In this document: positions 34,062 through 52,588 of the stretch, piece by piece
Layout: the number at the start of each line of letters is the position of its first letter
Numbering within the stretch: position 1 is the stretch's first letter
Source of the DNA: Patescibacteria group bacterium
Lineage (GTDB): Bacteria > Patescibacteriota > Minisyncoccia > Phycocordibacterales > UBA9973
Reading direction: 5' to 3'
DNA length: 64,000 nucleotides
Assembly: GCA_038061755.1 (NCBI GenBank)
Contig: JBBTYN010000004.1
Location: forward strand, 3,198 to 67,197
Notes under the pieces: model-generated
What the model saw: only the letters and a program-made list of their open reading frames with translations
Database searches by the model: none
Told to the model about the DNA's origin: nothing
Program-made: the position numbers and the translations under genes

Positions 34062-34910
34062 TCAAAATTTTTTGGTTAAGATTTTTATTTTGGTAACTGC
34101 CCGTTCTATATCATCATTAATTATAAGGATAACATCAATTTTTTTATTTATAGAATCTAATACTGATTTAAATTCACTTAATTGTCTTGTGCCCAAAGTT
34201 GAAACAATAGCTGACCTAAAGTCATCGTTCGTTTTTTGACACCTATCAGCTAGTCGTGCCGCGAGATGGAGTAAAATAGGTGCAGGAGGTAAAATATAAA
34301 CCAAAATAAATTCATAATCTTTATAAATTTTGAAATATTCAGCTAAGCTTGTTAGGTTGATCGGATTTTCTTCAATTAATATTATTTGTGATTTTTGCAA
34401 AACTTTTTCTATATCATGTTTTTGAATTCCATATTTTCCTCTTTTTTTTCTATTCATACATATTGCAAAACCATTTTGAGCAGCAATTTTTTTAAATTGA
34501 GCTTCATCAATGAAGTGGTAGTTTTTACCGTTTTTTTCATTCTTTCTTTTTTTTCGTGTAGTTGTATTAACAACTGTATTAAAACCCAAAGCATTTTTTA
34601 TAGTTTCCTTACCAACTGCACCAGGTCCAGCTATTCCAAAAATAATTTTTTTAATATTTGTTTTAAATAATTTTTTTTGAACTTTATTAAATAAAACTTG
34701 TTCAAGTTTATAAGGAATCTCATTAATATTACTATTCTTAATTCCTAATTCTTTTGCAAAAACATAAAGTGCTTGTTCCCAAGCCCTATAATGTATTAAT
34801 AATAAATCTATATTGTCTTCAACTAACCTAAAAACCTCTCTAGAATAAATATTCTCTAAAACCAGTAAATCCTTTTCGAAAGAAGATTTTAATGTTGGCT
34901 TTTTTCTCAT
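34062..34910 (-). CDS. gmk: Guanylate kinase-like protein with an N-terminal extension of about 95 aa.
   Basis: P-loop GPGAVGKET and TTRKKRKNEKNGKNYHFID (compare the canonical TTRPPRPGEVDGVDYHF). Confidence 0.6.
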   Translation of the reverse strand: MRKKPTLKSSFEKDLLVLENIYSREVFRLVEDNIDLLLIHYRAWEQALYVFAKELGIKNSNINEIPYKLEQVLFNKVQKKLFKTNIKKIIFGIAGPGAVGKETIKNALGFNTVVNTTTRKKRKNEKNGKNYHFIDEAQFKKIAAQNGFAICMNRKKRGKYGIQKHDIEKVLQKSQIILIEENPINLTSLAEYFKIYKDYEFILVYILPPAPILLHLAARLADRCQKTNDDFRSAIVSTLGTRQLSEFKSVLDSINKKIDVILIINDDIERAVTKIKILTKKF

Positions 34911-34979
34911 TATTAAATGTTTATATCATAAAAAATACTATTTGTCTTTAATTCTCACATATTATAATATATCTATATT

Positions 34980-37886
34980 ATGATTTCCCGAATATATGTG
35001 ACACCTAAAGGCAAAGCTAATTTCATTAATTCTTATTTAATTTCACATAAATTTGCAAGTGATCAAAGAGATAAAATCCTTAAAATAGCCAAGGCTTTAA
35101 CTAACCCCATCCTCGAAGAATTTTTTATAAATAAATTCCCAAAAACAAAGAAATTTACTTATGTAATAGAAATAGGTTTTAAACCTGGGGTCACAGACAA
35201 TGTCGGGCATACTGTAGAAGAAACTATAATTGATTTACTGGGTGTTGTCGGGTGTCCAACACCCGACAACATAGCAGTCTATACTTCTAAGATTTTTTTA
35301 GTTTCCAATTCTAAATTAGAAGAAGTAAAAAAGATTGCTCTCTCGCTTCACAATCCTCTCATTGAGCGTTCTTATGTCGCGAGTTTTGCTGAAATAAAAA
35401 AAAATGGCTTACCCTTAAAGGTTCCTAAGGTTATTTTAAAAAAGGCTATTCCTGTAATTAATGTTTCTCTTAATGTGTCTGATGAAGAACTTAAAAAAAT
35501 CGGAAAAGAGGGGATAATGGACGAAACAAATATTAGACGAGGTCCTTTGGCTCTTGATTTGACATCAATGAAAGTAATCCAAGAACATTTTAAAAAATTT
35601 AAAAGAGATCCGACCGATATTGAGCTGGAGTCTCTTGCGCAGACTTGGTCTGAACATTGTAAACATACTATTTTTGCAAATCCTATTGACGACATCAAAG
35701 ACGGTTTATATAAAACATACATAAAAAGCGCAACAAATCTAATCAGAAAAAATAAAGGCAAAAATGATTTTTGTATTTCTGTATTTTCTGATAATTCTGG
35801 AGGAATAATTTTTGATAAAGATTATTTAATAACGCATAAAGTTGAAACACACAACAGCCCTTCAGCCTTAGATCCATTTGGAGGTGCTATCACAGGTATT
35901 GTGGGTGTAAATCGAGACACGATAGGTTTTGGCTTAGGTGCTAAACCAGTAGCTAATGTTTATGGTTTTTGTTTTGGAAACCCAGAAGATAAAAGCTTAC
36001 TTTTTCGCGACAAAAATTTAACACAAAAAATGCTTTCACCAAAAAGAATAATGGAAGGGGTGGTAAAAGGTATAAATGTAGGAGGAAACTGTTCCGGAAT
36101 ACCGACTCTTTCTGGTTTTGTTCATTATGATGATAGATATAGGGGCAAGCCTCTAGTTTTTGCTGGCACAGTCGGATTAATTCCAAGAAAAATACAAGGA
36201 AAATTATCACACAAAAAACAGGCACAAGTTGGAGATTATATCGTTGTTGTTGGCGGAAGAGTAGGGCTTGATGGTATTCATGGGGCAACTTTTTCTTCTG
36301 TGGTAATGGATTCAAGTTCCCCAGCGACCGCAGTGCAAATCAGTGACCCAATTACTCAAAAAAAATTAAGTGATGCAATAATTAAAGAAGCGCGTTATAT
36401 GAATTTATATAATAGTATTACTGATAATGGTGCTGGTGGAATTTCTTGTTCAGTTGCTGAAATGGCAAAAGAATGCGGGGGAGCAAAAGTTTTTTTGGAA
36501 AAAGTACCACTAAAATACCTGAGTCTTCGTCCATGGGAAATTTGGATTTCAGAATCACAAGAACGTATGACTTTATCGGTGCCAAAGAAAAAGTGGAGTA
36601 CATTCAAAAAATTAATGGAGAAAAGGGGAGTGGAAGCGACAGTAATAGGTGAATTTACAAATTCTAAAAAATGTATTGTAGAATATAGTGGTAAAAAAAT
36701 CATGGATATTGATATGGAATTTTTACATGAAGGACTTCCAAAACAACATTTAATTACTTCTTCAGTTATTTATAAAAATATTGAACCAATACTTGAAATA
36801 AAAAAATCTTTTACTGCAATTCTAGAAAAATTACTAAGTAATAAAAATCTTAGTGGATTTTCTTTTATTTCCGAACAATATGACCATGAAGTGCAAGGGT
36901 CTTCTGTTCTAAAACCACTTTCTGGGAGAGGTCGTATAAATACCGATGCACAAGTTTTTCAACCAGTTTTAAATTCAAATAAAGGAGTTATTTTGTCTTC
37001 TAGTACTTATCCTTCATATGGAGATATTAGCACTTATCATATGGCTTCTTGCGCGATAGATACTGCTATTAGAAATACTGTTTGTTCTGGTGGAACACTT
37101 TCGCATTTAGCAATTTTAGATAATTTTTGTTGGTGTTCATCCAATGACCCAAAACGTTTAGCGCAGTTAGTAGATTCAGTGAAAGCTTGTTATGAATATG
37201 CTGTAGGTTTTGGTACACCTTTTATTTCTGGCAAAGACAGTATGTTTAATGATTTTAAAGGTTATGATGAAAAAGGGGAGCCTATGGCTGTTTCTATACC
37301 ACCGACACTTCTTATTTCAGCGATCAGCGTTATGCCTGACTTAAATAAAACTGTTTCTCCAGAATTTAAAAAAATTGGCGATATAATTTATTTATTAGGA
37401 GAAACGAATGATGAACTTGGTGGGGGAGAATATTATAAAACACTTGGCGTTGTTGGTAGTAATGTACCAAAAGTAGATTTAAAGAAAAATATAAAAACTT
37501 ATCGCGCTTTAGAAAAAGCAATTCAAAAAGAATTAATAGCTTCGGCAATATCTGTAAATTCTGGCGGACTTGCAATAGCACTCGCCAAAGCCTGTGTGGG
37601 AGGAATGGTAGGTTGTAATGTTTCCCTAAAGAGCCAGATAGCGCCTAAGGCGCTATCTGTAGAAGTAAAATTATTTTCTGAAAGTCAGGGAAGAATTTTA
37701 GTTTCTGTTTCCCATCAAAATGTTGCTAAATTTGAGCAAATAACCGCTACTTTACCAAGGGTTACCCTTGGTAAAGTAATAAAAGATGGGAAATTTATAA
37801 TTACCAATGGTAAAAATAAAGTAGTAGAAACAAATATTAAAAAGTTGTATGATGCATACCATAAATTTTCTAACTCACAAAAATGA
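34980..37886 (+). CDS. purL: Phosphoribosylformylglycinamidine synthase, a PurS-like N-terminal domain and linker fused to a PurL synthetase. The glutaminase is encoded separately downstream.
   Basis: PurS-like segment VIEIGFKPGVTDNVGHTVEETI, then PTDIELESLAQTWSEHCKHTIF and the AIR-synthase-related FGAM domains. 968 aa. Confidence 0.85.
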   Translation: MISRIYVTPKGKANFINSYLISHKFASDQRDKILKIAKALTNPILEEFFINKFPKTKKFTYVIEIGFKPGVTDNVGHTVEETIIDLLGVVGCPTPDNIAVYTSKIFLVSNSKLEEVKKIALSLHNPLIERSYVASFAEIKKNGLPLKVPKVILKKAIPVINVSLNVSDEELKKIGKEGIMDETNIRRGPLALDLTSMKVIQEHFKKFKRDPTDIELESLAQTWSEHCKHTIFANPIDDIKDGLYKTYIKSATNLIRKNKGKNDFCISVFSDNSGGIIFDKDYLITHKVETHNSPSALDPFGGAITGIVGVNRDTIGFGLGAKPVANVYGFCFGNPEDKSLLFRDKNLTQKMLSPKRIMEGVVKGINVGGNCSGIPTLSGFVHYDDRYRGKPLVFAGTVGLIPRKIQGKLSHKKQAQVGDYIVVVGGRVGLDGIHGATFSSVVMDSSSPATAVQISDPITQKKLSDAIIKEARYMNLYNSITDNGAGGISCSVAEMAKECGGAKVFLEKVPLKYLSLRPWEIWISESQERMTLSVPKKKWSTFKKLMEKRGVEATVIGEFTNSKKCIVEYSGKKIMDIDMEFLHEGLPKQHLITSSVIYKNIEPILEIKKSFTAILEKLLSNKNLSGFSFISEQYDHEVQGSSVLKPLSGRGRINTDAQVFQPVLNSNKGVILSSSTYPSYGDISTYHMASCAIDTAIRNTVCSGGTLSHLAILDNFCWCSSNDPKRLAQLVDSVKACYEYAVGFGTPFISGKDSMFNDFKGYDEKGEPMAVSIPPTLLISAISVMPDLNKTVSPEFKKIGDIIYLLGETNDELGGGEYYKTLGVVGSNVPKVDLKKNIKTYRALEKAIQKELIASAISVNSGGLAIALAKACVGGMVGCNVSLKSQIAPKALSVEVKLFSESQGRILVSVSHQNVAKFEQITATLPRVTLGKVIKDGKFIITNGKNKVVETNIKKLYDAYHKFSNSQK

Positions 37887-38635
37887 AAAAGCCAAAAATA
37901 ATAATAATATCAGGATATGGATTAAATTGCGAAGAGGAAACAAAATTCGCTTTTGAGTTGGCGGGAGGGATTGCAAATATAGTACATATCAATGATTTAA
38001 TAAAAAAACCGAAAATGCTTAAAGAATATCAAATCTTAGTTTTTCCTGGAGGATTTTCTTATGGAGATGATACTGGTAGTGGAAAAGCCTATGCGAATAA
38101 ATTTAAAAATCATTTAGCGAAAGAGTTAACAGAATTTTTATCTCGCAATACTCTCACAATTGGTATTTGTAATGGATTTCAAATTATAACTAATTTAGGA
38201 ATTTTGCCTGGCGGGCTTACCTATAATAAAAATGGAAAATATATAGACAGATGGGTTGATTTAGAAGCAAAAGGAAACAGTCCCTGGCTCAAAGGTATTA
38301 AAAAAATATCACTGCCAATAGCGCATGGCGAAGGACATTATGTTATTTCCAAAAAAGAATACAAAAAAATGAGAAAAAATAAAGAAATTGCTTTTGTTTA
38401 TACAAATGGAGAAATTTGTAAGTTTCAAAATCTTGAAAAAAACCCAAACGGATCAGAATATGACATCGCAGGAGTTTTAGCATATAATGGCAGAGTGCTA
38501 GGTATGATGCCACATCCAGAACGTGCAATGTTTTCGCACCAAAGTCCAATATGGCAGATGGATAAGAATGTTCAAAAAGAGGGGGTAGGATTACAGATTT
38601 TTAAAAACGCAATTAATTATTTTTTAAATTCATGA
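37883..38635 (+). CDS. purQ: Phosphoribosylformylglycinamidine synthase glutaminase subunit.
   Basis: Class-I glutamine amidotransferase motif GICNGFQ and an HPE triad region. Confidence 0.85.
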   Translation: MKKPKIIIISGYGLNCEEETKFAFELAGGIANIVHINDLIKKPKMLKEYQILVFPGGFSYGDDTGSGKAYANKFKNHLAKELTEFLSRNTLTIGICNGFQIITNLGILPGGLTYNKNGKYIDRWVDLEAKGNSPWLKGIKKISLPIAHGEGHYVISKKEYKKMRKNKEIAFVYTNGEICKFQNLEKNPNGSEYDIAGVLAYNGRVLGMMPHPERAMFSHQSPIWQMDKNVQKEGVGLQIFKNAINYFLNS

Positions 38636-40029
38636 GCGAACTAAAAGAAAAATGTGGAATCGTAGGAATATACGGTAAAGATTTACCTATTTCTCGGTTA
38701 GCTTTTTTTGCTTTATTTGCATTACAACACAGAGGACAAGAAGCATCAGGCATCACCACTAATGATGGAAAAAAATTTCGTACTCATAAAGGCGCAGGAC
38801 TCGTATCTCAAGTATATACAGAAAAAACAATAAAAAAACTGACAGGGTATATAGCCATAGGGCACAATAGATACTCCACTTCCAAAGGGGGAGCACTTCA
38901 TCATGCTCAGCCAGTTGTAAACAAGGATGCTTCTTTTGCCTTAGCGCATAATGGCAACTTACCAAGTATAAAAGCATTAGAAAATTTTCTTTCTTCAAAA
39001 AAAATATTAAAAAAAGATCGTAATGACTCAGAACTTATAGCTGATGCTATAGATTTTTATATAAAAGAGGGTAACTCACTACCAAAATCTATTGAAAAAG
39101 CTTTTCCTTTATTTACTGGGTCTTTTTCTTTAATAATGATGAGTAAAGATACCTTAGTTGCTGTGCGAGACACTTATGGAATGCGTCCACTTGCGATAGG
39201 GAAACTTAATAAAGGTTATGTTATAGCTTCAGAAACATGCGCAATCCAAACTATCGGCGCAACATTTTTAAGAGAAGTAAAACCAGGAGAAATGATTATT
39301 ATAAATAAGGCTGGAATAAAAAGTATACAGTTAGCGCCATCAAATCCAAAACATGACATATTTGAATATGTTTATTTCGCTCGACCAGACAGCTCACTAA
39401 ATGGTAAATTAATTTATGAAGTCAGAAAAAACTTTGGAAAAGCACTTGCTCATGAGTTTAAGAAAAAAGTCGACATTATTGTACCTGTGCCTGATACAGC
39501 AATGCCTGTTGCCTTAGGGTATAGTCAAGCATCTGGCATTCCAATAGAAATGGCTTTGGTGAAAAATCGCTATGTCCATAGAACTTTTATTGAACCCGAT
39601 CAAAAATCTCGCCGGAATAGTGTTGCGCTTAAACTTATACCACTTCCACAAATTTTAAAAGGTAAAAAAATAGTAGTGATAGATGATTCTATAGTTAGGG
39701 GACACACGTGTAAAAAATTAGTTAAAACGTTTTTTAAAGCAGGCGCCAAAGAAGTGCATCTTTTGATCTCTTCTCCACCTATCCGTTATCCAGATTTTTA
39801 TGGTATGGACACACCTAATCAAAATGAATTAATTGCATCATATAAAACAGTAGAGGAAGTTCGTAAATTCATGGGAGCTACATCACTACATTATCTTTCA
39901 CTTGAAGGTTTAATAAAAGCTATTGGCTTACCTAAAGATAAATTATCCACATCATGCTTTACAGGTATTTACCCTATTGATTTAAAAGAACGAAAAAGTG
40001 AAGTACGATACGATGTCTCAACAAAATAA
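38632..40029 (+). CDS. purF: Amidophosphoribosyltransferase.
   Basis: Ntn-hydrolase N-terminus MSELKEKCGIVGIYG and a PRTase domain. Confidence 0.9.
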   Translation: MSELKEKCGIVGIYGKDLPISRLAFFALFALQHRGQEASGITTNDGKKFRTHKGAGLVSQVYTEKTIKKLTGYIAIGHNRYSTSKGGALHHAQPVVNKDASFALAHNGNLPSIKALENFLSSKKILKKDRNDSELIADAIDFYIKEGNSLPKSIEKAFPLFTGSFSLIMMSKDTLVAVRDTYGMRPLAIGKLNKGYVIASETCAIQTIGATFLREVKPGEMIIINKAGIKSIQLAPSNPKHDIFEYVYFARPDSSLNGKLIYEVRKNFGKALAHEFKKKVDIIVPVPDTAMPVALGYSQASGIPIEMALVKNRYVHRTFIEPDQKSRRNSVALKLIPLPQILKGKKIVVIDDSIVRGHTCKKLVKTFFKAGAKEVHLLISSPPIRYPDFYGMDTPNQNELIASYKTVEEVRKFMGATSLHYLSLEGLIKAIGLPKDKLSTSCFTGIYPIDLKERKSEVRYDVSTK

Positions 40030-40633
40030 ACTAAAATTAGTTATATTAATTTCTAATACTGGTACAGGTACCAATCTAAAAGCTATAATTGATGAAGTTA
40101 ATTCTGGTACAATTAAAGCTGAGATTTGTGCGATAATTTCAGATACAAAAGAAGCTCAAGGACTAGAACATGCGCGAAAAAATAATTTAAAAATTGAAAT
40201 TTGTGAAGCCAAAGAAGACCTATTGTCACTTTTAAATAAAATAAGTCCAAATTATATTTGCCTAGCTGGCTGGAAACAAATTATTACAGACGAAGTAATT
40301 TTGGCTTTTCCAAATAAAATTTTAAATTTGCATCCTGGCTTAATTCCAGACATAATTAATGAAAGTGTAAAAAATCCTGATGACACAGAAGCTCTTTGGA
40401 ATAAAGGAATGATGACCATTAAAGCGATCCAGAATTTCTTAGATAAAAAAGCCACCTTCGCTGGTTCTAGTGTTCATTTTTTAACTTTAGAATTTGATTT
40501 TGGTCCTGTGCTGGGAAGAACTTTTGAAAAAATTGAAGATAATGATGATATTGAATCTTTATATGGAAGACTAAAGAAAAAAGAAAATAAGTTATATGTA
40601 GAAGTATTAGAAAAATTGTGTCAAAATAAATAA
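40013..40633 (+). CDS. purN: Phosphoribosylglycinamide formyltransferase.
   Basis: Formyltransferase fold (LVILISNTGTGTNLKAI ... NLHPGLIP). Confidence 0.8.
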   Translation: MSQQNKLKLVILISNTGTGTNLKAIIDEVNSGTIKAEICAIISDTKEAQGLEHARKNNLKIEICEAKEDLLSLLNKISPNYICLAGWKQIITDEVILAFPNKILNLHPGLIPDIINESVKNPDDTEALWNKGMMTIKAIQNFLDKKATFAGSSVHFLTLEFDFGPVLGRTFEKIEDNDDIESLYGRLKKKENKLYVEVLEKLCQNK

Positions 40634-40634
40634 T

Positions 40635-41930
40635 ATGCAAAAACAAAAAATTTTAATAATAGGTTCCGGTGGAAGGGAACATGCTATAGGGTGGAAAGTA
40701 GCGCAATCACCCAAGGCGGGACAAATTTTCTTTGCGCCTGGAAATGGGGGGACAAGTAAAATAGGAATTAATGTAGATATAAAAGCAAATGATATAAAAG
40801 GATTGTTAGAATTTGCAAAAAAAGAAAAAATAGATTTAACATTGGCTTTACCTGACGACCCACTTGCGCTTGGAATTGTAGACGAATTTAAAAAAAATAA
40901 TTTACGTATTTTTGGCCCGACAAAACAAGCTAGTAAAATTGAATGGTCTAAAGCTTTTTCAAAAAATTTTATGCATCAACACAATTTATTAACAGCAAAA
41001 TTTGAAATATTTAATAATTTTGAAAAAGCAAAAAAATATATATCAGAACAATCTTTCCCAGTTGTTATAAAAGCAAGTGGTTTAGCATTGGGAAAAGGTG
41101 TAATCATTTGCCAAAATCTAGAGGAAGCGAATGAAGCGCTAGAAAATATGTTTATAAAAAAAGTTTTTGGGGATGCTGGCAGTATTGTAGTAATAGAAGA
41201 ATTTTTAACTGGTCCAGAAATTTCTATTCATGCATTTTCAGATGGGAAAAATTACAAAATGTTTCCAACTTCTCAGGACCATAAAAAGATAGGAGAAAAT
41301 AATACTGGTTTAAACACTGGTGGAATGGGCACGATCGCTCCGCTCCCTTTTGTGACTGATAAACTTTTAAAAAATATTGAAAAAGATATTGTTATTCCAA
41401 CTATTGAATCAATGAATAAAGATGATAATCCATTTTTAGGTGTGATTTATCCAGGATTAATGCTAACAAAAGATGGCCCAAAAATTCTTGAATACAATGC
41501 GCGTTTTGGCGACCCAGAAACTCAAACATATATGCGACTTTTAGATACAGATATTTTGGATATTTTTAATGCATGTGTTGATGAAAAACTTGATCAAATA
41601 GAGATAAATTGGAGTAAAAAATTCGCTTGCACAATAGTGCTTGCTTCAGGAGGATATCCAGAAAATTATGAAAAAGGTAAAGTAATTTCAGGTATTGAAG
41701 AAGCAGAAATGCAATCTGATATAGTTGTCTTCCACGCTGGCACAAAAATTGTGAGGCAAGACCTCACAACTAATGGCGGGCGAGTATTAGGAGTTTCAGC
41801 TATTGGAAATACTCTAGAAGAAGCACTACAAAAAGCTTACAAAGCTATAGAAAAAATTTCTTTTGAAGGTATGCAATACCGCAAAGATATCGGTCAATCT
41901 GCATTAAAAATACCTATTTATCCCAATTAA
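40635..41930 (+). CDS. purD: Phosphoribosylamine--glycine ligase.
   Basis: ATP-grasp GARS domains (ILIIGSGGREHAIGWK). Confidence 0.9.
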   Translation: MQKQKILIIGSGGREHAIGWKVAQSPKAGQIFFAPGNGGTSKIGINVDIKANDIKGLLEFAKKEKIDLTLALPDDPLALGIVDEFKKNNLRIFGPTKQASKIEWSKAFSKNFMHQHNLLTAKFEIFNNFEKAKKYISEQSFPVVIKASGLALGKGVIICQNLEEANEALENMFIKKVFGDAGSIVVIEEFLTGPEISIHAFSDGKNYKMFPTSQDHKKIGENNTGLNTGGMGTIAPLPFVTDKLLKNIEKDIVIPTIESMNKDDNPFLGVIYPGLMLTKDGPKILEYNARFGDPETQTYMRLLDTDILDIFNACVDEKLDQIEINWSKKFACTIVLASGGYPENYEKGKVISGIEEAEMQSDIVVFHAGTKIVRQDLTTNGGRVLGVSAIGNTLEEALQKAYKAIEKISFEGMQYRKDIGQSALKIPIYPN

Positions 41931-43263
41931 AGAATTGTTCTCGATCTGGTCCTGTACCAACGGAGATGATTTTTATATTTAGGTCAGAAAGTTTATTTTT
42001 TATATATTTCAAATAAGAGATAAGTTCTTTGGAAACCTTTTTTTTATTATTCACCCCATAATTTTTCTCACCCCAGCCATTTATATTATCTGTTACCACT
42101 TCTGTCACCTGATTTAAATAAAGTGGAAATTCTTTTAGAGTTTTTGTTTTATTTTTTTCTTTAGTTTTATATCCAGTTACAACTTTTATTTTATCACTCA
42201 AACAAATATCAGCTTTATTGATAAAAATTCTATTAGCGCCAGAAAGTTCTATGGCATAACGTAAAGCAAATAAATCAAGCCAACCACACATTCGCGGACG
42301 GCCAGTGGTCGATCCAAATTCCTGCCCAGCATTTTGAAAAAGTTTCTCTAAAGTTTCGTCTTTTATTCTAGCTGGAAAACTTCCACCACCTACTTTTGTT
42401 GTGTAAGCTTTTATCACACCATATATATTCCGTATGTAAGTATGAGGAACACCCAAGCCTAAACATACACTAGCTGGTAGGGTATTAGAACTTGTCACAT
42501 TTGGATAATCTCCAAAATCAATATCAAGCATCACAGCCTGCGCGCCTTCAGCTAAAATATTTTTTCCTTCTTTCAGCTTTTTTTGTATTAAAGAAGATAA
42601 AATACAAATCTTAAGTTTCTTTATTTCTTTTACAGCTTTCCACCATTTTTCCTTTGCTTCTTTTATTTTTTTAAAATCAATTTCAAAACCATATTTTTCT
42701 TGATACATCTTTAAAACATTAATATGAAATTCTGACAAAATTTCTTCTTTTTGTTTAAAATCTGGTGACAATATATCGCCAATTAAAAACGCTCTTCTTG
42801 CTCGGACATCACTATAAGCTGGGCCTATGCCCCTTAAAGTAGTTCCTACTTTTGTTTCTAATTTTCCACTCAATTTACCTCTGCGATATTCCTCTGCTTG
42901 ATCTAAAAATGGATGCAAATATGAGACTAACTTTGCGCGGTTTGAAATATAAAGACGAGAAATAACATTGAACCCCAGACTTTTTAATTGGGAAATTTCT
43001 TCGACTAAAGATACTGCATCCACCACAACACCATTACCGATATATAATTCTATATCCTTATGGAGACAACCAGACGGAAGAATATGTCCAATAAAAGTAG
43101 TCTTGCCTAATTTAAGAGTGTGTCCTGCATTTGCCCCTCCTTGAAAACGCGCTACCCCGGAATAAATACCAGAAGACAAAAGTTGATCTATATTTTTACC
43201 TTTTCCTTCATCTCCCCACTGAAGACCTACAACCACATCTATAAAACCATTTTTATTATTCAT
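41914..43263 (-). CDS. purA: Adenylosuccinate synthetase.
   Basis: GDEGKGK P-loop and GGANAGHT motif. Confidence 0.9.
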   Translation of the reverse strand: MNNKNGFIDVVVGLQWGDEGKGKNIDQLLSSGIYSGVARFQGGANAGHTLKLGKTTFIGHILPSGCLHKDIELYIGNGVVVDAVSLVEEISQLKSLGFNVISRLYISNRAKLVSYLHPFLDQAEEYRRGKLSGKLETKVGTTLRGIGPAYSDVRARRAFLIGDILSPDFKQKEEILSEFHINVLKMYQEKYGFEIDFKKIKEAKEKWWKAVKEIKKLKICILSSLIQKKLKEGKNILAEGAQAVMLDIDFGDYPNVTSSNTLPASVCLGLGVPHTYIRNIYGVIKAYTTKVGGGSFPARIKDETLEKLFQNAGQEFGSTTGRPRMCGWLDLFALRYAIELSGANRIFINKADICLSDKIKVVTGYKTKEKNKTKTLKEFPLYLNQVTEVVTDNINGWGEKNYGVNNKKKVSKELISYLKYIKNKLSDLNIKIISVGTGPDREQFFNWDK

Positions 43264-43277: not shown

Positions 43278-44780
43278 TTACTGTCCTACACTATAATTAG
43301 GAGACTCTTTGGTAATTATAACATCATGAGGATGACTTTCTTTTATACCAGAATTAGTAATCCTGACAAATCTTGCTTTATCTTGAAGAGTTTTTATATT
43401 TTCCGCTCCGCAATATCCCATACCAGCTCGAAATCCTCCCACAAGCTGATAAATTACTTCTGAAAGTCCGCCCTTAAAAGAAACTCTACCAACAATTCCT
43501 TCTGGCACAAGTTTTTTTATGTCATCTTCCATATCTTGAAAATATCTATCTTTAGAACCTAGTTGCATAGCCTCAATAGAACCCATCCCGCGATAAGTTT
43601 TATATTTTCTAGATTCAAAAATGATTACCTCCCCAGGAGATTCTTCAACTCCAGCAAATAAGGAACCAACCATAACAGAACTTGCTCCTGCTGCTATTGC
43701 TTTAGTAATATCTCCTGTGTGTTTTATGCCACCATCAGCGATAACTGGCACACCTGAACCCTTTATAGCTTTCGCTACCTCATACACAGCAGAAAATTGA
43801 GGATAGCCTACACCAGCAATTATCCGAGTAGTACAAATTGAACCTGGGCCAATACCAACTTTTACGGCATCTGCTCCAGCTTTAACTAAAGCTAACGCCG
43901 CTTCTTCTGTAGCGATATTCCCAACAATAACTTCTAATTTAGGAAATTCTTTTTTTATTTTCTTCAACATTTCAATTACTCCTTTTGAGTGACCATGAGC
44001 AGTATCAATAACTATTACATCCACTCCATTTTGCACAAGTGCTTTAACTCTCTCTCCTGTATCATTTGATACTCCTATCGCTGCGCCAACACGCAAACGA
44101 CCTAAATTATCTCGAGAAGATTTTGGGCGAGACCTTACTTTCATTATATCTTTATAAGTAATTAGACCAATAAGTCTGTTTTTATTATCAACTAAAGGCA
44201 ATTTTTCAACTTTATATTCTGTTAAAATCTTTTCAGCTTCTTTTAAATCCGTGCCGATACTACCAGTTATTAAGTTTGTTTTTGTCATCACTTCTCCCAC
44301 AGAAAGTTCTAAATTTTCTTGAAATCTCAAATCACGATTAGTTAAAATTCCCTTTAATTCCATATTTTTACCAACTATTGGAATTCCGCCAATTTTATTT
44401 TCTTTCATTATGGTTAAAGCTTCACGAAGCAAAGCTTCTTCCGTTAAAGTTATAGGGTCATGAATCATCCCGCTCTCAGAACGCTTTACCTTACGCACTT
44501 CAGCTGTCTGTTTTTCAATAGTCATATTCTTATGAATAATTCCTATCCCTCCCTCTTGAGCCATTGCTATTGCCATATCTCCTTCAGTTACCATATCCAT
44601 AGCAGCAGAAACAATCGGAACACTGAGTGTTATTTTTTTAGTAAGCTTTGAAGAAATATCAACATCGCGAGGTAAAACTTCAGAGTATTGTGGCACAAGT
44701 AAAACATCGTCATACGTCAAGCCTTCTTTAAAATTTTCTCGCTGTATTTTTATTTTGTTTTTTTCTACTTTCAAAGCCAT
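43278..44780 (-). CDS. guaB: IMP dehydrogenase.
   Basis: TIM barrel with a CBS pair; active-site loop [11 protein letters not shown]. Confidence 0.95.
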
Positions 44781-44805: not shown

Positions 44806-46362
44806 ATGAATGATATACAAATCCTTATTGTGGACTATGGGTCGCAATATACACTAATTATCGGTAGAACTTTGCGGGAACTCGGAGTACGAAGCATAAT
44901 ATTACCACTAAACAAAGTTGACGGGTGGCTTAAAAATAATATACCTAAAGCGGTCATTCTCTCTGGTAGTAATTGGAGCGTTCACAACGAAGGTGCGCCA
45001 GAGCTTCCTAAAATACTTAATGCTACTCTCAAAAATAATAACAAAAAATATTTAATTCTAGGAATCTGTTATGGTATGCAACTTCTAGCGCACAAACAGG
45101 ACGGCATCGTCGCAAGACCACTTGATCATCGTGAATATGGACCAGCTACAGTAACATTAAATACAACACATCCTCTTTTTAATGGTGTTCCAAAAAAGAC
45201 CAAAGTCTGGGCAAGCCATGGAGACACTGTCACCAAACTTCCTAAAGGTTTTACTTCTATCGCCACCTCAGGTGGAATTGCTGCTATGAGCAACAAAGAC
45301 AATAATATATTTGGAATCCAATTTCATCCAGAAGTTGTTGATACCAAAGAAGGAAAAAAAATATTACAGAATTTTTTAAATATGGCTAATTGTAAAAAAG
45401 ATTGGAATCCGATAAATTTAATTCATGAAATTCAAAAAGAAGTATTGGATATTGTAGGAGAAAAACCTGCCCGCCGTGGCGGGGAAAAAGTTATCTTAGG
45501 AGTTTCAGGTGGAGTAGATTCCACTACTTTAGCTGCAATCCTTGCACCAGTTTTAGGGCGTAGGCTCATTTGTATAGCCATAGATACTGGGGGACTAAGG
45601 CAAGGTGAGATAATAGAATTAAAAAGTAATACTAAAAGTGCCGGCATAACAAGTCTTAAAATAATTTCTGCTGGAGATAAATTTATAAAAAATATTAGTA
45701 CCACAATTGATGGGGAAGAAAAACGCGCGAAATTTCGTAATGTATATAAAAGAATATTTGAAGAACAAATAAAAAAAGCGGGCGCAAAGTTTATAGTTCA
45801 AGGAACTTTAGCAACAGATATTATTGAGAGTGGAAAAATAGGGGAGTCAGCAATGATTAAGACTCATCACAATGTAGGTCTTAATTGGAAAGTAGAAGAT
45901 TTGCATCCTTTTAGAAATTTATTTAAATATGAAGTACGAGAATTAGCTCGCGTACTAAAACTTCCAAAGGTCATCTCTGAGCGCAATCCCTTTCCTGGTC
46001 CTGGTTTGTTTTTAAGAATTGTTGGCACGCCAGTCTCAAAAGAAAAACTTAATCTTGTACGAGAAGCGGATAAAACTGTAGCAGATATATTAAAAAAATA
46101 TGATATCGACAAAGATATTTCCCAACTCATTGTCGCCCTTCTTGGTGTTAATTCTGTCGGCGTAAAAGGCGACGAACGTGTTTATGGACACTCACTCGCT
46201 ATTCGTGCTGTGCAAACAGTAGATTTTATGACAGCCAAAGGCTATTATTTTCCGGAAGTGGTAATGGAAGAAATTACAAATACTCTCACTAAACATAAAG
46301 ACATAGTTCGTGTATTTTTTGACATGACCCCTAAACCTCCAGCAACAACCGAATTTGAGTAA
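44806..46362 (+). CDS. guaA: GMP synthase (glutamine-hydrolysing).
   Basis: GATase N-terminus (ILIVDYGSQYT...GICYGMQ) and an ATP-PPase SGGVDS motif. Confidence 0.95.
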   Translation: MNDIQILIVDYGSQYTLIIGRTLRELGVRSIILPLNKVDGWLKNNIPKAVILSGSNWSVHNEGAPELPKILNATLKNNNKKYLILGICYGMQLLAHKQDGIVARPLDHREYGPATVTLNTTHPLFNGVPKKTKVWASHGDTVTKLPKGFTSIATSGGIAAMSNKDNNIFGIQFHPEVVDTKEGKKILQNFLNMANCKKDWNPINLIHEIQKEVLDIVGEKPARRGGEKVILGVSGGVDSTTLAAILAPVLGRRLICIAIDTGGLRQGEIIELKSNTKSAGITSLKIISAGDKFIKNISTTIDGEEKRAKFRNVYKRIFEEQIKKAGAKFIVQGTLATDIIESGKIGESAMIKTHHNVGLNWKVEDLHPFRNLFKYEVRELARVLKLPKVISERNPFPGPGLFLRIVGTPVSKEKLNLVREADKTVADILKKYDIDKDISQLIVALLGVNSVGVKGDERVYGHSLAIRAVQTVDFMTAKGYYFPEVVMEEITNTLTKHKDIVRVFFDMTPKPPATTEFE

Positions 46363-46377: not shown

Positions 46378-47925
46378 ATGATAAAAGAAAATAAAAAAAT
46401 AAAATCAGCTTTAATTTCAGTTTTTAATAAAGATGGACTTGAAGAAATTGTAAAACTTCTTCATAGGCATAATGTAAAAATTATTTCTACTGGTGGTACG
46501 GCAGAATTTATTCGCAAACTTAGTGTACCAGTAACTGAAGTAGAAGAAATCACAAATTATCCTGCCTTATTTGGTGGTAGAGTTAAAACACTGCAACCAC
46601 AAATTTTTGGCGGGATTTTAAATCGCCGAGATAATGTAAATGATATAAAAGAAAAAGTGGAGCACAAAATAGAAGACATTGATTTGGTAATCGTAGACCT
46701 ATATCCATTTGAAGAAACTCTAGCTAGTGGAGCTAATGAGGAAGAAATTATTGAAAAAATAGACATCGGCGGAGTATCTTTAATTCGCGCAGCGGCGAAA
46801 AATTTTAATGATGTCGTAGTGATTCCTTCAAAACATCAATATGAAGAATTAAAAAATATTTTAAAAATAAGTGACACTACGACATTAGAACAACGCAAAA
46901 AATTTGCAGGCAATGCATTTGAAGTGACAAGTATTTACGATAGTGCTATTCGTGGGTATTTTCAACCTTTGCCAAAGATGCCCTTTGACATATTGATGTC
47001 AAAGGGCATCTTTGGCAATATCCCGCTGCGCTATGGAGAAAACCCACACCAAAGAGCAAAATTTATAGGTAATTTAGAAGAGAGTTTTATACAACTTCAT
47101 GGAAAAGAGCTTTCTTATAATAATTTGATGGATACTGAAGCTGCCATTATGACCGTTTATGATTTTAGAGATCCTGCTTTCGCTATTGTTAAACATATGA
47201 ATACTTGCGGTCTGGCTGTTAGGGAAGAAGGACATTTATTTGAGGCGTATCAAGCAGCTTATAATGCCGACCCACTTTCAGCTTTTGGTGGAGTATTAAC
47301 AGCTAATAGAATTATTGAGGAAGACATCGCTAAACTTATCAAGGAACAAAAACTTTTTATAGAAGTAATTATTGCGCCAGATTTTTCAAAAGAAGCTTTA
47401 AATATTTTAATGGAGAAAAAGGATTGTAGAATTTTGAGGTGGAAAAAACCAAACCTTCCGCTAAAACAAAACAAGACTTGCTTTACTGGAATTCTGTCGC
47501 AAGATCGAGATACTCATATAGAAAGTGAGACAGATTTAAAAGTGACAACTAAGCGTGAACCAACAGAGCAAGAGAAAAAGGATTTACTCATTGCTGCAGT
47601 AATAACGAAACATTTAAAATCTAATGCTATCGCTTTAGTAAAAGATGGAACACTTCTTTCAATGGGTTGTGGACAAACTTCACGCATTGATGCATTAAAA
47701 CAAGCTATTGATAAAGCCAAAAAATTTAAATTTTCACTCAAGGGTGCTGTTATGTCATCTGAAGCATTTTTCCCATTTCCTGATTGCGTAGAGATGGCAG
47801 GGGAAGAAGGTATAACTGCTGTACTTCATCCTGGAGGTTCAAAGAATGATCAAACATCCATAGATATGGCAAATAAATACAAAATGGCAATGGTAACAAC
47901 TGGCTTTAGACATTTTAAGCATTGA
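46378..47925 (+). CDS. purH: Bifunctional AICAR transformylase / IMP cyclohydrolase. It carries an in-frame copy of the palindromic element at 46971..47016.
   Basis: MGS-like N-terminal domain and an AICARFT domain (LRYGENPHQ). Confidence 0.9.
   Translation: MIKENKKIKSALISVFNKDGLEEIVKLLHRHNVKIISTGGTAEFIRKLSVPVTEVEEITNYPALFGGRVKTLQPQIFGGILNRRDNVNDIKEKVEHKIEDIDLVIVDLYPFEETLASGANEEEIIEKIDIGGVSLIRAAAKNFNDVVVIPSKHQYEELKNILKISDTTTLEQRKKFAGNAFEVTSIYDSAIRGYFQPLPKMPFDILMSKGIFGNIPLRYGENPHQRAKFIGNLEESFIQLHGKELSYNNLMDTEAAIMTVYDFRDPAFAIVKHMNTCGLAVREEGHLFEAYQAAYNADPLSAFGGVLTANRIIEEDIAKLIKEQKLFIEVIIAPDFSKEALNILMEKKDCRILRWKKPNLPLKQNKTCFTGILSQDRDTHIESETDLKVTTKREPTEQEKKDLLIAAVITKHLKSNAIALVKDGTLLSMGCGQTSRIDALKQAIDKAKKFKFSLKGAVMSSEAFFPFPDCVEMAGEEGITAVLHPGGSKNDQTSIDMANKYKMAMVTTGFRHFKH
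46971..47016. repeat. Nested palindromic element, copy 4, variant B. It lies inside the purH ORF at the inter-domain linker and is translated as LPKMPFDILMSKGIFG.
   Basis: gccaaagatgccctttgacat-attg-atgtcaaagggcatctttggc with 21-bp perfect arms. The ORF is left open. Confidence 0.9.
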
Positions 47926-48000: not shown

Positions 48001-48028
48001 GTTCTACATAATAAAAAAGGAGAGTGAA

Positions 48029-48613
48029 ATGAAAAAATTATTTTTAACGGTGGTGGTTGTGGCCATATTAGCATTTTCAATTTCTTGCCGGGCGGACGAA
48101 GTGTCACTAGTGAGAATTAATGTTGTCAAAAAAACCGCTGGATTTGTCGCTGGATTTGCGTCCGGATTAGGTTTTCACGAGCTTGGACATGAAGCCATGG
48201 CTAAACTTGAAGGAGCGGAAATGCACTGGAGTGATACGAACTGGAGTACCAATGCATCCCCAGCGACCTTGCGAAACATTGCCATTGCCGGTTTCGGGGC
48301 TCAAATATTGAGCACTGAAGTTATGCTGGGAACTAACATCATCCCAAAAGACAACTCGTTTGTCTTGGGATGGTTGACTTTCAACATACTGAATACCGTA
48401 CAGTATGTTGTAACAGATAATTTGCGAAATGGAGGTTACGGAGATTTTGAGACTCTCCGTAATAACGGAGGAAATACGGATTTGGTAAAAATCGGACTAT
48501 TGGTGCACGCAGTATTGAGCGCCTACCGACTCTATAAAAATCCAAAATTTATTCCGTATGTCAGCGCGACCAAGGATGAGTTTGTCCTTGGACTAGCATG
48601 GAAATGGGATTAA
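48029..48613 (+). CDS. Secreted or lipoprotein-like protein with an HExxH motif (putative Zn-metallopeptidase-like). It is GC-rich and inserted between purH and purE.
   Basis: Strong SD AAAGGAG. Signal peptide with a Cys (MKKLFLTVVVVAILAFSISC) and a HELGHE motif. GC is about 43% versus about 32% locally. Confidence 0.6.
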   Translation: MKKLFLTVVVVAILAFSISCRADEVSLVRINVVKKTAGFVAGFASGLGFHELGHEAMAKLEGAEMHWSDTNWSTNASPATLRNIAIAGFGAQILSTEVMLGTNIIPKDNSFVLGWLTFNILNTVQYVVTDNLRNGGYGDFETLRNNGGNTDLVKIGLLVHAVLSAYRLYKNPKFIPYVSATKDEFVLGLAWKWD

Positions 48614-48709: not shown

Positions 48710-49246
48710 ATGAAAAATCTAAAAGTTGGTATAGTTATGGGTTCAGATTCAGATTTGGAAATAATGACGGAAGCGGCAAAAATTCTTGAAGAATTTAATG
48801 TGCATTATGAAATGACTGTAGCTTCTGCGCATCGAAGTCCTGATTTAGTACATAAATACACAACCAGTGCAAAATCTCGCGGATTGAAAATTATTATTGC
48901 TGGTGCAGGTGGAGCAGCGCATTTAGCAGGAGTTATCGCATCACTGACGACTCTTCCTATTATCGGTGTCCCAATTAAATCAAAATATTTAAAAGGACTT
49001 GATTCTTTATTTTCTACTGTCCAAATGCCTCCAGGTGTACCAGTAGCCACTGTCGGAATTAATGCAGGGAAAAATGCTGGACTTTTAGCTTTACAAATAC
49101 TTGCAACAGGTGATAAAAATTTAGAAAAAAAATTAGTTGCCTATAAAAATAAAATGAGTAGTGAAGTGAAAGCAAAAGGAGAAAAACTTTTAAAAGTTGG
49201 ATATAAAAAATATCTATCTGCGCAGGAAAGTTTAGAAAATAAATAA
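48710..49246 (+). CDS. purE: PurE (N5-CAIR mutase or class II AIR carboxylase). No purK is found in the window.
   Basis: [14 protein letters not shown] motif. Confidence 0.9.
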
Positions 49247-49247: not shown

Positions 49248-50288
49248 ATGAGCGATTTGTATAAACAAGCTGGTGTAAACATAGAAGCTGGTAATGAAGT
49301 CGTAAGACGAATTAAAAAAAAAGTGGCAAGTACTCACACTAGTGCTGTACTTACAAATATCGGACACTTTGGCGGACTATATGATTTAGGAGAAATTATT
49401 AAAAATTACAAACATCCAATCTTAGTTCAAAGTATTGATGGCGTTGGGACAAAACTCTTGGTGGCTAAAATGGCTAACAAGTATGACTCTGTGGGTGAAG
49501 ATATCGTCGGACATAGTTGTGGAGACATTTTAGCAATGGGTGCACGACCTATTACATTTCTAGATTATGTCGCTAATGAAACGCTTATACCAGAAGAAAT
49601 GGAACAAATGGTTTCTGGTATGGTCAAAGCTTGCAAAGAAGCAGGAGTCGCAATTGTTGGTGGTGAAACCGCTGAAATGCCTGGAGTATATATGAAAGGT
49701 GAACATGATATTGCTGGATGCATTACTGGTATAGTTGAAAAAGATAAAATAATAACTGGGGAAAAAATTAAAGAAGGGGATATTTTACTAGGTCTCGCTT
49801 CTTCAGGACTGCATACAAATGGATTCTCTCTTGCTAGAAAATTAATTTTTGAAAAAGCAGGGCATACTATAGGTGAAAAAATTCCTGAACTTGATATGAC
49901 TGTAAGAGAAGCACTTTTACAAGTTCACACGAATTACACTAAGCCAATCTTAGAAATACTTGATTCCGACATTGAAATAAAAGGCATAGCACATATAACC
50001 GGCGGAGGATTTATTGAAAATATTCCACGAATACTTCCTAAAAATCTTGATGCAGAAATTAAAAAAAGGACATGGCCAATCCTTCCAATTTTTCCTTTTA
50101 TGCAAAAAATTGGAAATGTTAGTGAACAGGAAATGTATACCGCCTTTAATATGGGTATTGGAATGGTTTTAGTGTCTCCAGTATCAGAAAAAATAAAAAT
50201 CACAAAAATTTTTAAAAAGTATCCAGATTATAAAATCTATGAAATTGGTAAAATTATTAAAGGTTCAGGCAAAGTACAACTAAAATAA
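49248..50288 (+). CDS. purM: Phosphoribosylformylglycinamidine cyclo-ligase (AIR synthetase).
   Basis: PurM N-terminus YKQAGVNIEAGNE and core. Confidence 0.9.
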   Translation: MSDLYKQAGVNIEAGNEVVRRIKKKVASTHTSAVLTNIGHFGGLYDLGEIIKNYKHPILVQSIDGVGTKLLVAKMANKYDSVGEDIVGHSCGDILAMGARPITFLDYVANETLIPEEMEQMVSGMVKACKEAGVAIVGGETAEMPGVYMKGEHDIAGCITGIVEKDKIITGEKIKEGDILLGLASSGLHTNGFSLARKLIFEKAGHTIGEKIPELDMTVREALLQVHTNYTKPILEILDSDIEIKGIAHITGGGFIENIPRILPKNLDAEIKKRTWPILPIFPFMQKIGNVSEQEMYTAFNMGIGMVLVSPVSEKIKITKIFKKYPDYKIYEIGKIIKGSGKVQLK

Positions 50289-50295: not shown

Positions 50296-51225
50296 ATGAA
50301 CATTTTAGAAAAAACAGATTTCAAAAACTTGGGAGAAAAATATACTGGTAAAGTGAGAGATGTATACAGCCAAAAAGATAAAGTTATTATGATTTCTACA
50401 GACCGATATTCAGCTTTTGACCGTAATTTAGCGTTAATATCGTGCAAGGGACAAGTATTAACCCAAGTCAGTAAATTTTGGTTTGAGAATACAAAAGATA
50501 TTGTAAAAAATCATGTCCTAGATTTTCCTGATCCAAATGTGGTGATAGGTAAAAAATGTAAAGTAATACCAATAGAATGGGTAGTACGCGGATACATCAC
50601 AGGAATTACAAGCACATCTCTTTGGACACATTACAAAGAAGGCAAGAGAAACTTTGGTAATTTTGTTTTAACTGAAGGACTTAAAAAAAATCAAAAACTA
50701 GCAGAAATAGTTTTTACTCCGACAACAAAAGATGAACACGATAGGCCGATAACTCCCAAAGAAATTGTGACTGAAGGAATTCTCCCGGAGGAGATGGTAA
50801 TAGAATTAGAAAGAATTGCAAAAACTTTATTTAAAAGAGGACAAGAAATAGCTCTTGCTCATGGATTAATTTTAGTAGATACAAAATATGAGTTTGGTTT
50901 AGATGAAAATAATGAAATAATTTTGATTGATGAAATTCATACCCCGGATTCTTCTAGGTATTGGCAAGCTGATTCATATCAAGCTAGAATAGACCAGGGT
51001 TTAGAGCCAGAGAATTTTGATAAAGAATTTTTACGTTTATGGTTTAAGGAAAATTGCGACCCATATAAAGATGAGATAATACCTGAGGCACCACACGAGT
51101 TAGTTCTTGAATTATCTAGAAGATATATTAAAATTTGTGAACAAATTACTGGAATTCCTTTTATGGTTGAAACTGGAGATATTTCCAAACGAATAGAAAA
51201 TAATTTAAAAAAATATGAAATCTAA
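50296..51225 (+). CDS. purC: SAICAR synthetase, long form (309 aa).
   Basis: GKVRDVY motif and a SAICAR synthetase fold, longer than the ~237-aa bacterial form. Confidence 0.85.
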   Translation: MNILEKTDFKNLGEKYTGKVRDVYSQKDKVIMISTDRYSAFDRNLALISCKGQVLTQVSKFWFENTKDIVKNHVLDFPDPNVVIGKKCKVIPIEWVVRGYITGITSTSLWTHYKEGKRNFGNFVLTEGLKKNQKLAEIVFTPTTKDEHDRPITPKEIVTEGILPEEMVIELERIAKTLFKRGQEIALAHGLILVDTKYEFGLDENNEIILIDEIHTPDSSRYWQADSYQARIDQGLEPENFDKEFLRLWFKENCDPYKDEIIPEAPHELVLELSRRYIKICEQITGIPFMVETGDISKRIENNLKKYEI

Positions 51226-52588
51226 AATTTTAGAAAACACAATAAATCCATTAGACGGAAGATATTTTGATAAAACTCGGGTACTTGTGCCATATTTTTC
51301 AGAAGAGGCATTAATGAAATATCGAATAAGGGTGGAAACAGAATACCTAATTGCTTTATCTGAAAAGAAAATACTTCGCAAATTTACGCCAAATGAAATA
51401 AAAATAATTAGAAATCTTTATGAAAAATTTAACGAAAACTCATACAGAAAAATAAAAAAAATAGAAGCAACAACCAACCATGATGTAAAAGCAGTTGAAT
51501 ATTTAATAAAAAAAGAACTTTCCAAAACATCTTTAAAAGACAGCATTGAGTGGGTACATTTTGCCCTCACTTCCGAGGATACGAACAATCTGGCTTATGC
51601 TTTGATTTTATCTGATTCCTTAGATCAAGTTATTATTCCAGAAATAAATAAAATAATTTCTGAATTAAATGGTCTTGCAAAAAAATACAAAAATTTACCA
51701 ATGCTTGCTCGAACCCATGGGCAACCAGCATCACCAACTACTTTTGGAAAAGAAATGAGAGTTTTCGGAGCTCGTATAGAAAAAAGAGTTACTGGTCTAA
51801 AAAGTATAAAAATACAAGCTAAATTAGATGGAGCAAGCGGAAACTGGAATGCTCATACAGTAGCTTATCTAAATATAAATTGGATTGAATTCAGTAAAAA
51901 ATTTATTGAAAATTTTAATAAAGATCGCTCACAAAAACTCGAAGCAAATTTAATTACCACTCAGATTGAATGTCACGATAGTTATGTCGCAGTTTTCGAT
52001 GCATTAAGAATGATAAACACAATTCTATTAAACTTCAATCAAGACATGTGGAGATATATTTCTGATAATTGGATAACTCAAAAAACAAAGGAAGGGGAGA
52101 TCGGTTCTTCAACCATGCCACACAAAATAAATCCGATTGATTTTGAAAATAGTGAAGGGAATCTCGGTCTCGCAAATGCATTTTTTGAATTTTTTGCTAG
52201 AAAATTACCAATCTCACGTCTTCAACGCGATCTTTCAGATTCTACTGTAGAACGCGCTTTTGGCACGGCTTTTGGGCATTCATATTTATCTTATGTTTCT
52301 CTCCTCAAAGGATTAAGTAAAATCAATATAAATGAAATAAAGATAAAAGAGGATTTAAACAATCATCCAGAAGTAATTACTGAAGCTATTCAAACCATCT
52401 TGCGACGCGAAGGTGTAGCTATGCCATATGAAAAATTAAAAGAATTAACCCAAGGGAAACAAATTACACTTCTTGATATTCATAATTTTATTAATACGCT
52501 TGATGTAAGTGAAAAAATAAAAAAAGAACTTAAAAAAATTACTCCGGAAAATTATACCGGCCTTGCTTCAAAACTTGCTTCAAAGTAA
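51215..52588 (+). CDS. purB: Adenylosuccinate lyase.
   Basis: Fumarase/ASL family with the signature region GSSTMPHKINP. Confidence 0.9.
   Translation: MKSKILENTINPLDGRYFDKTRVLVPYFSEEALMKYRIRVETEYLIALSEKKILRKFTPNEIKIIRNLYEKFNENSYRKIKKIEATTNHDVKAVEYLIKKELSKTSLKDSIEWVHFALTSEDTNNLAYALILSDSLDQVIIPEINKIISELNGLAKKYKNLPMLARTHGQPASPTTFGKEMRVFGARIEKRVTGLKSIKIQAKLDGASGNWNAHTVAYLNINWIEFSKKFIENFNKDRSQKLEANLITTQIECHDSYVAVFDALRMINTILLNFNQDMWRYISDNWITQKTKEGEIGSSTMPHKINPIDFENSEGNLGLANAFFEFFARKLPISRLQRDLSDSTVERAFGTAFGHSYLSYVSLLKGLSKININEIKIKEDLNNHPEVITEAIQTILRREGVAMPYEKLKELTQGKQITLLDIHNFINTLDVSEKIKKELKKITPENYTGLASKLASK

Follow-up and report, generated by a model that had tools for sequence, protein, structure and literature searches.

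The closest described counterparts of the formylglycinamidine ribonucleotide (FGAM) synthase analysed here are the mdPurL proteins of methanogens, which were reported by Brown et al. (2011, Biol Direct 6:63; PMC3261824) as PurL proteins with a separate purQ gene and no purS gene. The reported hosts are Methanospirillum hungatei, Methanoculleus marisnigri, Methanocella, Methanoregula boonei and two Methanococcus species, and five of these six organisms lack purS (PMC3261824). The PurS nature of the N-terminal mdPurL extension was only suspected in that study (PMC3261824). No paper beyond it that uses the name mdPurL was found among the papers searched. JGI/IMG annotates such proteins as 'phosphoribosylformylglycinamidine synthase subunit PurSL', and KEGG also has an entry for a PurSL orthologue. 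In the large PurL of Salmonella, the N-terminal domain is catalytically inert and forms an essential bridge, which relays a signal from the C-loop at the formylglycinamide ribonucleotide (FGAR) site to the glutaminase site and helps to open a transient ammonia tunnel (PMC7124931). Class I-like PurE without PurK has been discussed in methanogens, Desulfurococcales and some Thermococci, and PurK loss has been attributed to high CO2, non-enzymatic formation of N5-carboxyaminoimidazole ribonucleotide (N5-CAIR) and the rescue of purK mutants by overexpressed PurE (PMC3261824).

The DNA under study is a 64-kb stretch of a Patescibacteria genome (positions 3,198–67,197 of contig JBBTYN010000004.1), hereafter referred to as the window. 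Window positions 34062–52588 very probably hold the gene cluster for de novo synthesis of purines, AMP and GMP in a Patescibacterium of the Paceibacteria/Nomurabacteria type that lives in Hainich groundwater, with a two-gene FGAM synthase (mdPurL/PurSL and PurQ) and a class I PurE that most likely functions independently of PurK or, alternatively, is served by a purK gene outside the window. The closest PurL homologues (up to 82% identity in the match table) belong to Candidatus Paceibacterota, Nomurabacteria and 'Patescibacteria group' metagenome-assembled genomes (MAGs). Eleven contigs encode an identical PurL; one of them, 143 kb in length, comes from ENA sample ERZ1292626 (Hain_H43) of Hainich groundwater.

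PurL architecture and family membership

The 968-residue PurL contains a tandem PurS-like N-terminal domain (residues 1 to ~140), a linker (residues ~140–230) and a small-PurL-like FGAM synthetase core (residues ~230–968). This organization bears out the first-pass annotation, which had described a PurS-like N-terminal domain and a linker, as in large PurL, fused to the synthetase, with the glutaminase left as a separate purQ. In Pfam, the FGAR-AT linker is located at residues 189–229 and is followed by two AIRS/AIRS_C modules without a GATase domain. For the N-terminal domain, Pfam reports only a weak PurS match and no large-PurL N-domain family, so that the proposed search for both domains succeeded for the linker but not, at the Pfam threshold, for PurS. 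The best NCBIfam model is that of small PurL (TIGR01736, residues 197–963), but the match falls below the equivalog cutoff of 525.75 bits, and ~190 residues precede it. The large-PurL models TIGR01735, NF003672 and TIGR01857 score 305, 276 and 261 bits, respectively, against cutoffs of 783, 1057 and 1123 bits, and align only from model positions 165–168 onwards (position 308 for TIGR01857). When aligned to solved structures, PurL residues 166–907 are colinear with residues 166–937 of the Salmonella large PurL chain, and BLAST detects no similarity to E. coli large PurL in residues 1 to ~165.

The PurS-type fold of the N-terminal domain, whose absence would have refuted the first-pass reading, is observed in an AlphaFold2 model of high confidence (mean predicted local distance difference test score (pLDDT) of 87.9 and predicted template modelling score (pTM) of 0.78). 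The alignment of the domain comprises the first 178 residues of PurL and those of 31 homologues. In the model, repeat 1 (residues 1–56) adopts a β-β-α-β arrangement, and repeat 2 (residues 58–137) displays the full β-α-β-β-α-β fold of PurS, making the fold-level match to PurS positive. A profile comparison of the two repeats identifies a common helix–strand motif (IAxxLxNPxxE, E=1.7e-5). Moreover, distant family members pass the Pfam PurS threshold, either in repeat 1 (P0231 and P0234) or in repeat 2 (P0244). Given the two-repeat model, the match between the repeat profiles and the distant Pfam PurS matches, the N-terminal domain is therefore assigned, at the level of the predicted structure, as a fused PurS pair, the counterpart both of the PurS dimer in the three-protein complex and of the N-terminal domain in large PurL. 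The earlier suspicion about the mdPurL extension is thus confirmed at the level of the fold.

By sequence comparison, the window PurL belongs to the known mdPurL/PurSL family. An N-terminal extension of ~200 residues that is PurS-like precedes a small-PurL-like core, purQ is a separate gene, and the protein is homologous to those of the published methanogen genera, with Methanoregula loci being recovered using the N-terminal domain as a query. The first-pass annotation had placed this architecture between the three-protein and single-protein FGAM synthases. The placement is apt as a description, but the novelty that it implied is not supported, because the architecture is that of the published mdPurL (PMC3261824) and the IMG 'PurSL' proteins and the N-terminal domain is encoded in at least 586 GTDB species genomes, as revealed by a scan with the N-domain alignment. 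The best 80 of these genomes include many candidate phyla radiation (CPR) lineages, Methanoregula, Methanospirillum, DPANN archaea, one Nitrospirota genome and one Spirochaetota genome. A search of representative proteins with the N-terminal domain returned mostly metagenomic fragments, whose lengths are uninformative beyond a few full-length matches. The full-length identity of the window PurL is 59% to a Roizmanbacteria protein and 51–55% to proteins from Methanospirillum, Methanospirillaceae, Diapherotrites, Nanoarchaeia, Nitrospirota and Spirochaetota; for Methanospirillum and Methanospirillaceae, it is 51–53% over ~950 residues and 35–37% in the N-terminal domain. Thermus small PurL, by contrast, is 29% identical to the window PurL, and the value for E. 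coli large PurL is 26%. These relationships among the small, md and large forms rest on hidden Markov model (HMM) bit scores and pairwise identities. With identities above 50%, the mdPurL family reaches beyond the methanogens into CPR, DPANN, Nitrospirota and Spirochaetota.

Three catalytic and gate residues of the core show no variation across the family alignment: H226 (the His of SEHC), H291 and T305. The latter two correspond to H296 of large PurL, which is the end gate of the ammonia channel, and to its partner T310 (PMC7124931). Judging from its homologous fold, its position and the conservation of the gate residues, the PurS pair fused to mdPurL most likely acts as a bridge and relay towards the separate PurQ. 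In such a complex, PurQ would hydrolyse glutamine, and the fused N-terminal domain would bridge PurQ and the synthetase core and transmit the allosteric signal for opening the ammonia path, in the manner of the N-terminal domain of Salmonella large PurL. Ammonia would then pass the conserved end gate (His291 and Thr305) to the FGAR/ATP site. Free PurS would not be needed, with the fused PurS pair in its place. The PurQ protein retains the Cys of the GICNGFQ motif (from residue 94) and the HPER motif (from residue 211), and there is an overlap of 4 nt (ATGA) between the start of purQ and the stop of purL, which suggests that the two genes are translationally coupled. With its adaptor domain covalently attached, a natural two-chain enzyme of this kind would lend itself well to studying the formation of the ammonia channel between PurQ and PurL.

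The md-type proteins also share a sequence motif. In all 81 family members with a readable motif (L001–L083 of the related loci were scanned), ETHN[S/A/T]PS replaces the E[ST]HNHP[ST] motif of small and large PurL; the first His is always kept, and a small residue always occupies the second His position. The TIGR01736 scores of the window PurL, P0158, P0231, P0251, L062, L039 and L068 range from 467 to 517 bits and all lie below the cutoff. Many NCBI/PGAP records probably carry the label 'AIR synthase-related protein' because md proteins fall just under this cutoff, and such labels can make CPR purine pathways look incomplete. Furthermore, several GTDB records with this CPR-type pur cluster (L008, L014, L021, L026, L039, L040, L060 and others) bear the label 'uncultured Candidatus Saccharibacteria' or 'uncultured Gammaproteobacteria'. 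These taxon labels look like automated misassignments, since the N-terminal domains are 40–64% identical to Paceibacteria proteins.

PurE class and the PurK step

The two PurE classes differ in their motifs, as known from E. coli PurE and human PAICS. The window PurE is class I, with a GSDSD motif from residue 11, SAHRSP from residue 39 and AGGAAHLAG from residue 66, as opposed to the SAHK and AGRSNGLGP-type loops of class II; the classification by active-site residues that had been called for is thereby provided. A tblastn search with E. coli PurK (from NC_000913.3) yielded no match in the 64-kb window. The slot upstream of purE instead contains purH and an unrelated 194-residue ORF. Among the related loci, true purK was identified by tblastn in four (L026, L029, L035 and L068; 32% identity, E=1e-39 to 1e-43), in each of which it lies directly upstream of purE, and purK is not adjacent in 34 of the 38 loci with purE in range.

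Given the absence of purK from its usual position, non-enzymatic N5-CAIR formation is the most likely route. N5-CAIR would form from aminoimidazole ribonucleotide (AIR) and CO2 or bicarbonate in a CO2-rich or host-associated setting. The alternative is that purK is encoded outside the window and that the organism uses the ordinary two-step route with PurK and class I PurE. This alternative is possible but somewhat unlikely. It is favoured by the canonical class I character of PurE, by the presence of purK in the four mdPurL-bearing relatives and by the location of most of the genome outside the 64 kb examined. However, all purK-positive relatives carry purK directly upstream of purE, where the window has purH and the unrelated ORF, and the relatives without adjacent purK have nearly all other pur genes clustered. 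In addition, anaerobes of CO2-rich habitats offer well-documented cases of purK loss beside a class I-like PurE (PMC3261824). The first-pass observation of a PurE without adjacent purK is thus correct, but the arrangement is not new, having been described for class I-like PurE in methanogens and other archaea (PMC3261824). The pathway, which had been called complete, is so only on the condition that the PurK step can be dispensed with.

The 70s loop of PurE varies among the 38 related loci. It reads AGGAAHLPGM in the four purK-positive relatives, as in E. coli, and contains HLAGV in the window; most purK-negative relatives are changed likewise (Pro to Ala or Gly and Met to Val). In a neighbour-joining tree, which is unsupported and based on a small sample, the loop change appears in several sub-clades beside purK-positive, Pro-bearing sisters. 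The L064 PurE is class II-like (SAHKTP and AGRSNALGG) in an md-bearing genome labelled 'Gammaproteobacteria', and in the L043 and L069 PurE proteins, the His of the 70s loop is replaced by Ala (AAALPG).

Free PurS and the separate PurQ

No PurS-like ORF was found among the six-frame ORFs of the window, and HMMs of the two N-terminal repeats matched PurL alone in its six-frame translation. A tblastn search of the window and 83 related loci with B. subtilis PurS also detected no purS, which is a weak negative.

Five observations weigh against the overall interpretation of the cluster. The Pfam PurS match (PF02700) in the window PurL is sub-threshold (16.1 versus 22.2 bits, E=0.013, residues 62–129). 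Helix α1 is missing from repeat 1; a 22-residue insertion restores it in some homologues. The second His of the canonical core motif is Ser, Ala or Thr across the md family. The AlphaFold2 model of full-length PurL (40 homologues) is poor (pLDDT of 51 and pTM of 0.34) and cannot be used to judge how the N-terminal domain packs against the core and PurQ. Finally, the purS and purK searches of this genome cover only 64 kb. The sub-threshold Pfam match and the extent of the search would be compatible with an N-terminal region of ~200 residues that is an unrelated regulatory or interaction domain, in which case free PurS encoded elsewhere would still be required. This possibility is very improbable when set against the confident PurS-type model, the internal repeat and the Pfam PurS matches of distant family members, which argue for the fused PurS pair.

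The purQ gene is separate in 61 of the 66 relatives with a complete purL, mostly immediately downstream, at distances of -7 to about +3000 bp from purL. It is fused to purL in two relatives and is not found in range in the remaining three. The notion that a frameshift, through sequencing error or pseudogenization, broke a large PurL gene into purL and purQ has a vanishingly small probability and is excluded for the window, because, despite the overlap of only 4 nt between the two ORFs and the existence of fused proteins (L039 and P0158), separate purQ genes prevail across the relatives' loci at variable distances, PurQ begins with a Met of its own and its alignment to the PurQ HMMs starts at model positions 2–3, the core scores far higher on small-PurL than on large-PurL HMMs, and the identical PurL recurs on 11 independent contigs.

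The fused relatives encode a 1256-residue md–PurQ protein (L039:9899-13669) and a 1683-residue PurD–md–PurQ protein (L068:8666-13717). Further fusions comprise a 1274-residue md–PurQ protein (P0158) and a 1443-residue PurD–md protein (P0172, seven member sequences). These higher-order fusions look like independent re-creations of a large-PurL-like architecture, since small PurL is still the best-scoring HMM for their cores. Several close relatives have an additional ORF between purL and purQ, such as that at L001:12967-14676, which encodes 569 residues without a Pfam match; the purL–purQ gaps with an extra ORF are ~1750 bp in L019, L022 and L023 and ~2900–3000 bp in L007 and L020.

A broader and quite doubtful proposal is that the md-type FGAM synthase represents a distinct third lineage, defined by a tandem-PurS–PurL protein with PurQ and by the ETHN[S/A/T]PS motif. 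This lineage would have been exchanged horizontally among CPR, DPANN and methanogens and would have repeatedly spawned larger fusions (md+PurQ, PurD+md and PurD+md+PurQ), and purK loss in the same genomes would repeatedly go together with a change from HLPGM to HLAGV in PurE. If this were true, the HLAGV loop would be the hallmark of a subtype of class I PurE with an adaptation to PurK-free function.

Cluster layout and comparison with known systems

In the ORF map, the limits of the cluster coincide exactly with the gmk-like gene end and the purB stop codon, and the cluster contains 14 purine, AMP and GMP genes within 18.5 kb (Table 1), confirming by Pfam and NCBIfam the 14 clustered genes in about 18 kb of the first-pass annotation. 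The gene order is gmk-like on the reverse strand; purL, purQ, purF, purN and purD on the forward strand; purA and guaB on the reverse strand; and guaA, purH, the 194-residue ORF, purE, purM, purC and purB on the forward strand. Most intergenic gaps are 25 nt or shorter or are slight overlaps, and the largest are 69–103 nt. The GC content of the window is 28–37%. The clustering had been regarded as unusual, which was not borne out. The cluster recurs in the same order or nearly so in dozens of relatives, and complete de novo inosine monophosphate (IMP) synthesis is reported for 32% of CPR MAGs in one groundwater study (PMC11608272), so that clustering is typical of the lineage.

Table 1. Genes, domains and motifs of the purine cluster (window positions; scores in bits)
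Feature	Position	Strand	Evidence
gmk-like kinase, 282 aa	34062..34910	-	Pfam Guanylate_kin E=6e-14, residues 93-252; TIGR03263 78 bits, cutoff 160
purL, mdPurL/PurSL type, 968 aa	34980..37886	+	Pfam, NCBIfam; TIGR01736 517 bits
PurL N-terminal domain, residues 1-140	34980..35399	+	AlphaFold2 fold
PurL ETHN[S/A/T]PS motif, residues 289-295	35844-35864	+	family alignment
purQ, glutaminase subunit, 250 aa	37883..38635	+	GATase_5 E=6e-72; TIGR01737 184.7 bits, cutoff 177.8
purF, amidophosphoribosyltransferase	38632..40029	+	TIGR01134 446 bits, cutoff 350
purN, glycinamide ribonucleotide (GAR) formyltransferase	39998..40633	+	Pfam Formyl_trans_N 101 bits; TIGR00639 115 bits, cutoff 150
purD, GAR synthetase	40635..41930	+	TIGR00877 523 bits
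purA, adenylosuccinate synthase	41914..43263	-	Pfam Adenylsucc_synt E=8e-122; NF002223 399 bits, cutoff 402 (3 bits short)
guaB, IMP dehydrogenase with CBS pair	43278..44780	-	TIGR01302 611 bits
guaA, GMP synthase	44806..46362	+	NF000848 480 bits, residues 6-518 aligned from the 44806 start
purH, aminoimidazole carboxamide ribonucleotide (AICAR) formyltransferase and IMP cyclohydrolase	46378..47925	+	NF002049 610 bits
194-aa ORF between purH and purE	47999-48613, likely start ATG 48029	+	unmatched in Pfam and NCBIfam
purE, class I (N5-CAIR mutase type), 178 aa	48710..49246	+	TIGR01162 214 bits, cutoff 149.6
PurE 70s-loop motif AGGAAHLAG, residues 66-74	48905-48931	+	sequence
purM, AIR synthetase	49248..50288	+	TIGR00878 375 bits
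purC, succinylaminoimidazole carboxamide ribonucleotide (SAICAR) synthetase, 309 aa	50296..51225	+	NF009251 415 bits, cutoff 371
purB, adenylosuccinate lyase	51215..52588	+	NF006764 618 bits

The equivalog cutoffs are passed by most cluster genes, with purA, purN, the gmk-like gene and PurL falling short. The gmk-like product is a divergent guanylate kinase with an N-terminal extension of ~90 residues and contains the GMP-binding motif TTRxxRxxExxGxxYxF despite its shortfall on TIGR03263. Its gene and purL are divergently transcribed across a 69-bp gap, an adjacency observed in the closest relatives only (L002, L003 and L006). PurN is divergent, with an insertion of ~25 residues between the NLHPGLIP and GSSVHF segments, and keeps the catalytic Asn, His and Asp motifs (NLHP and FDFGP). 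For guaA, the mechanical ORF begins at TTG 44755 within the divergent guaB; the probable true start is ATG 44806, which leaves 25 bp between the start codons of the divergent guaB and guaA. The PurC protein had been singled out as a long form of ~309 residues. The length is correct, but it is no oddity: the match to the long-form family NF009251 (PRK12607) spans residues 2–307, which identifies PurC as an ordinary member of a standard NCBIfam equivalog family.

The 194-residue membrane ORF encodes an N-terminal segment resembling a signal or lipoprotein sequence, an HELGH motif and several hydrophobic stretches. Its family consists of 25 clusters at 37–72% identity, all from Patescibacteria, and homologues elsewhere adjoin rpsF-ssb-rpsR and efp, or uvrD. 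No match to the ORF was found in any related pur locus. A role as a PurK substitute was rejected, as the homologues occur in non-purine contexts and none in related pur loci. The ORF is probably an incidental insertion rather than a purine gene, given its unrelated contexts in other genomes. Downstream of the cluster (positions 52598–54575), an ORF of 86 residues, very hydrophobic and matching no family, is situated directly upstream of a PBP2-type transpeptidase and, by position, could encode a small MreD-like membrane protein. An Rfam scan revealed no riboswitch in the cluster and three transfer RNAs only, all outside it, and a promoter and terminator scan returned no more sites than in shuffled sequence.

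The findings leave the current understanding of purine biosynthesis unchanged and are of modest practical value. Like the methanogen mdPurL proteins, the window PurL carries ~200 additional residues N-terminally, at the PurS position, ahead of a core of the small-PurL type. Its purQ gene is likewise separate and adjacent, no purS lies nearby, and the ETHN[S/A/T]PS motif is shared. Unlike large PurL (Salmonella, 1T3T and 4LGY; human PFAS, 9N9W), to which it is ~26% identical, it lacks a fused glutaminase. The small-PurL-type core, the separate PurQ and the two PurS-like modules, which match a PurS dimer, resemble the PurS2–smPurL–PurQ complexes of Thermotoga maritima (3D54) and Bacillus subtilis. 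In contrast to these complexes, the PurS modules of the window PurL are joined to each other and to PurL via an extra linker of ~60 residues, and no free purS gene is present in the window. The window PurE resembles the class I PurE proteins that occur without PurK in methanogens, Desulfurococcales and some Thermococci in its SAHR and AGGAAHL motifs and in having no purK nearby. It differs from them in its bacterial CPR host and in its 70s loop, which reads HLAGV, whereas E. coli and the purK-positive relatives have HLPGM.

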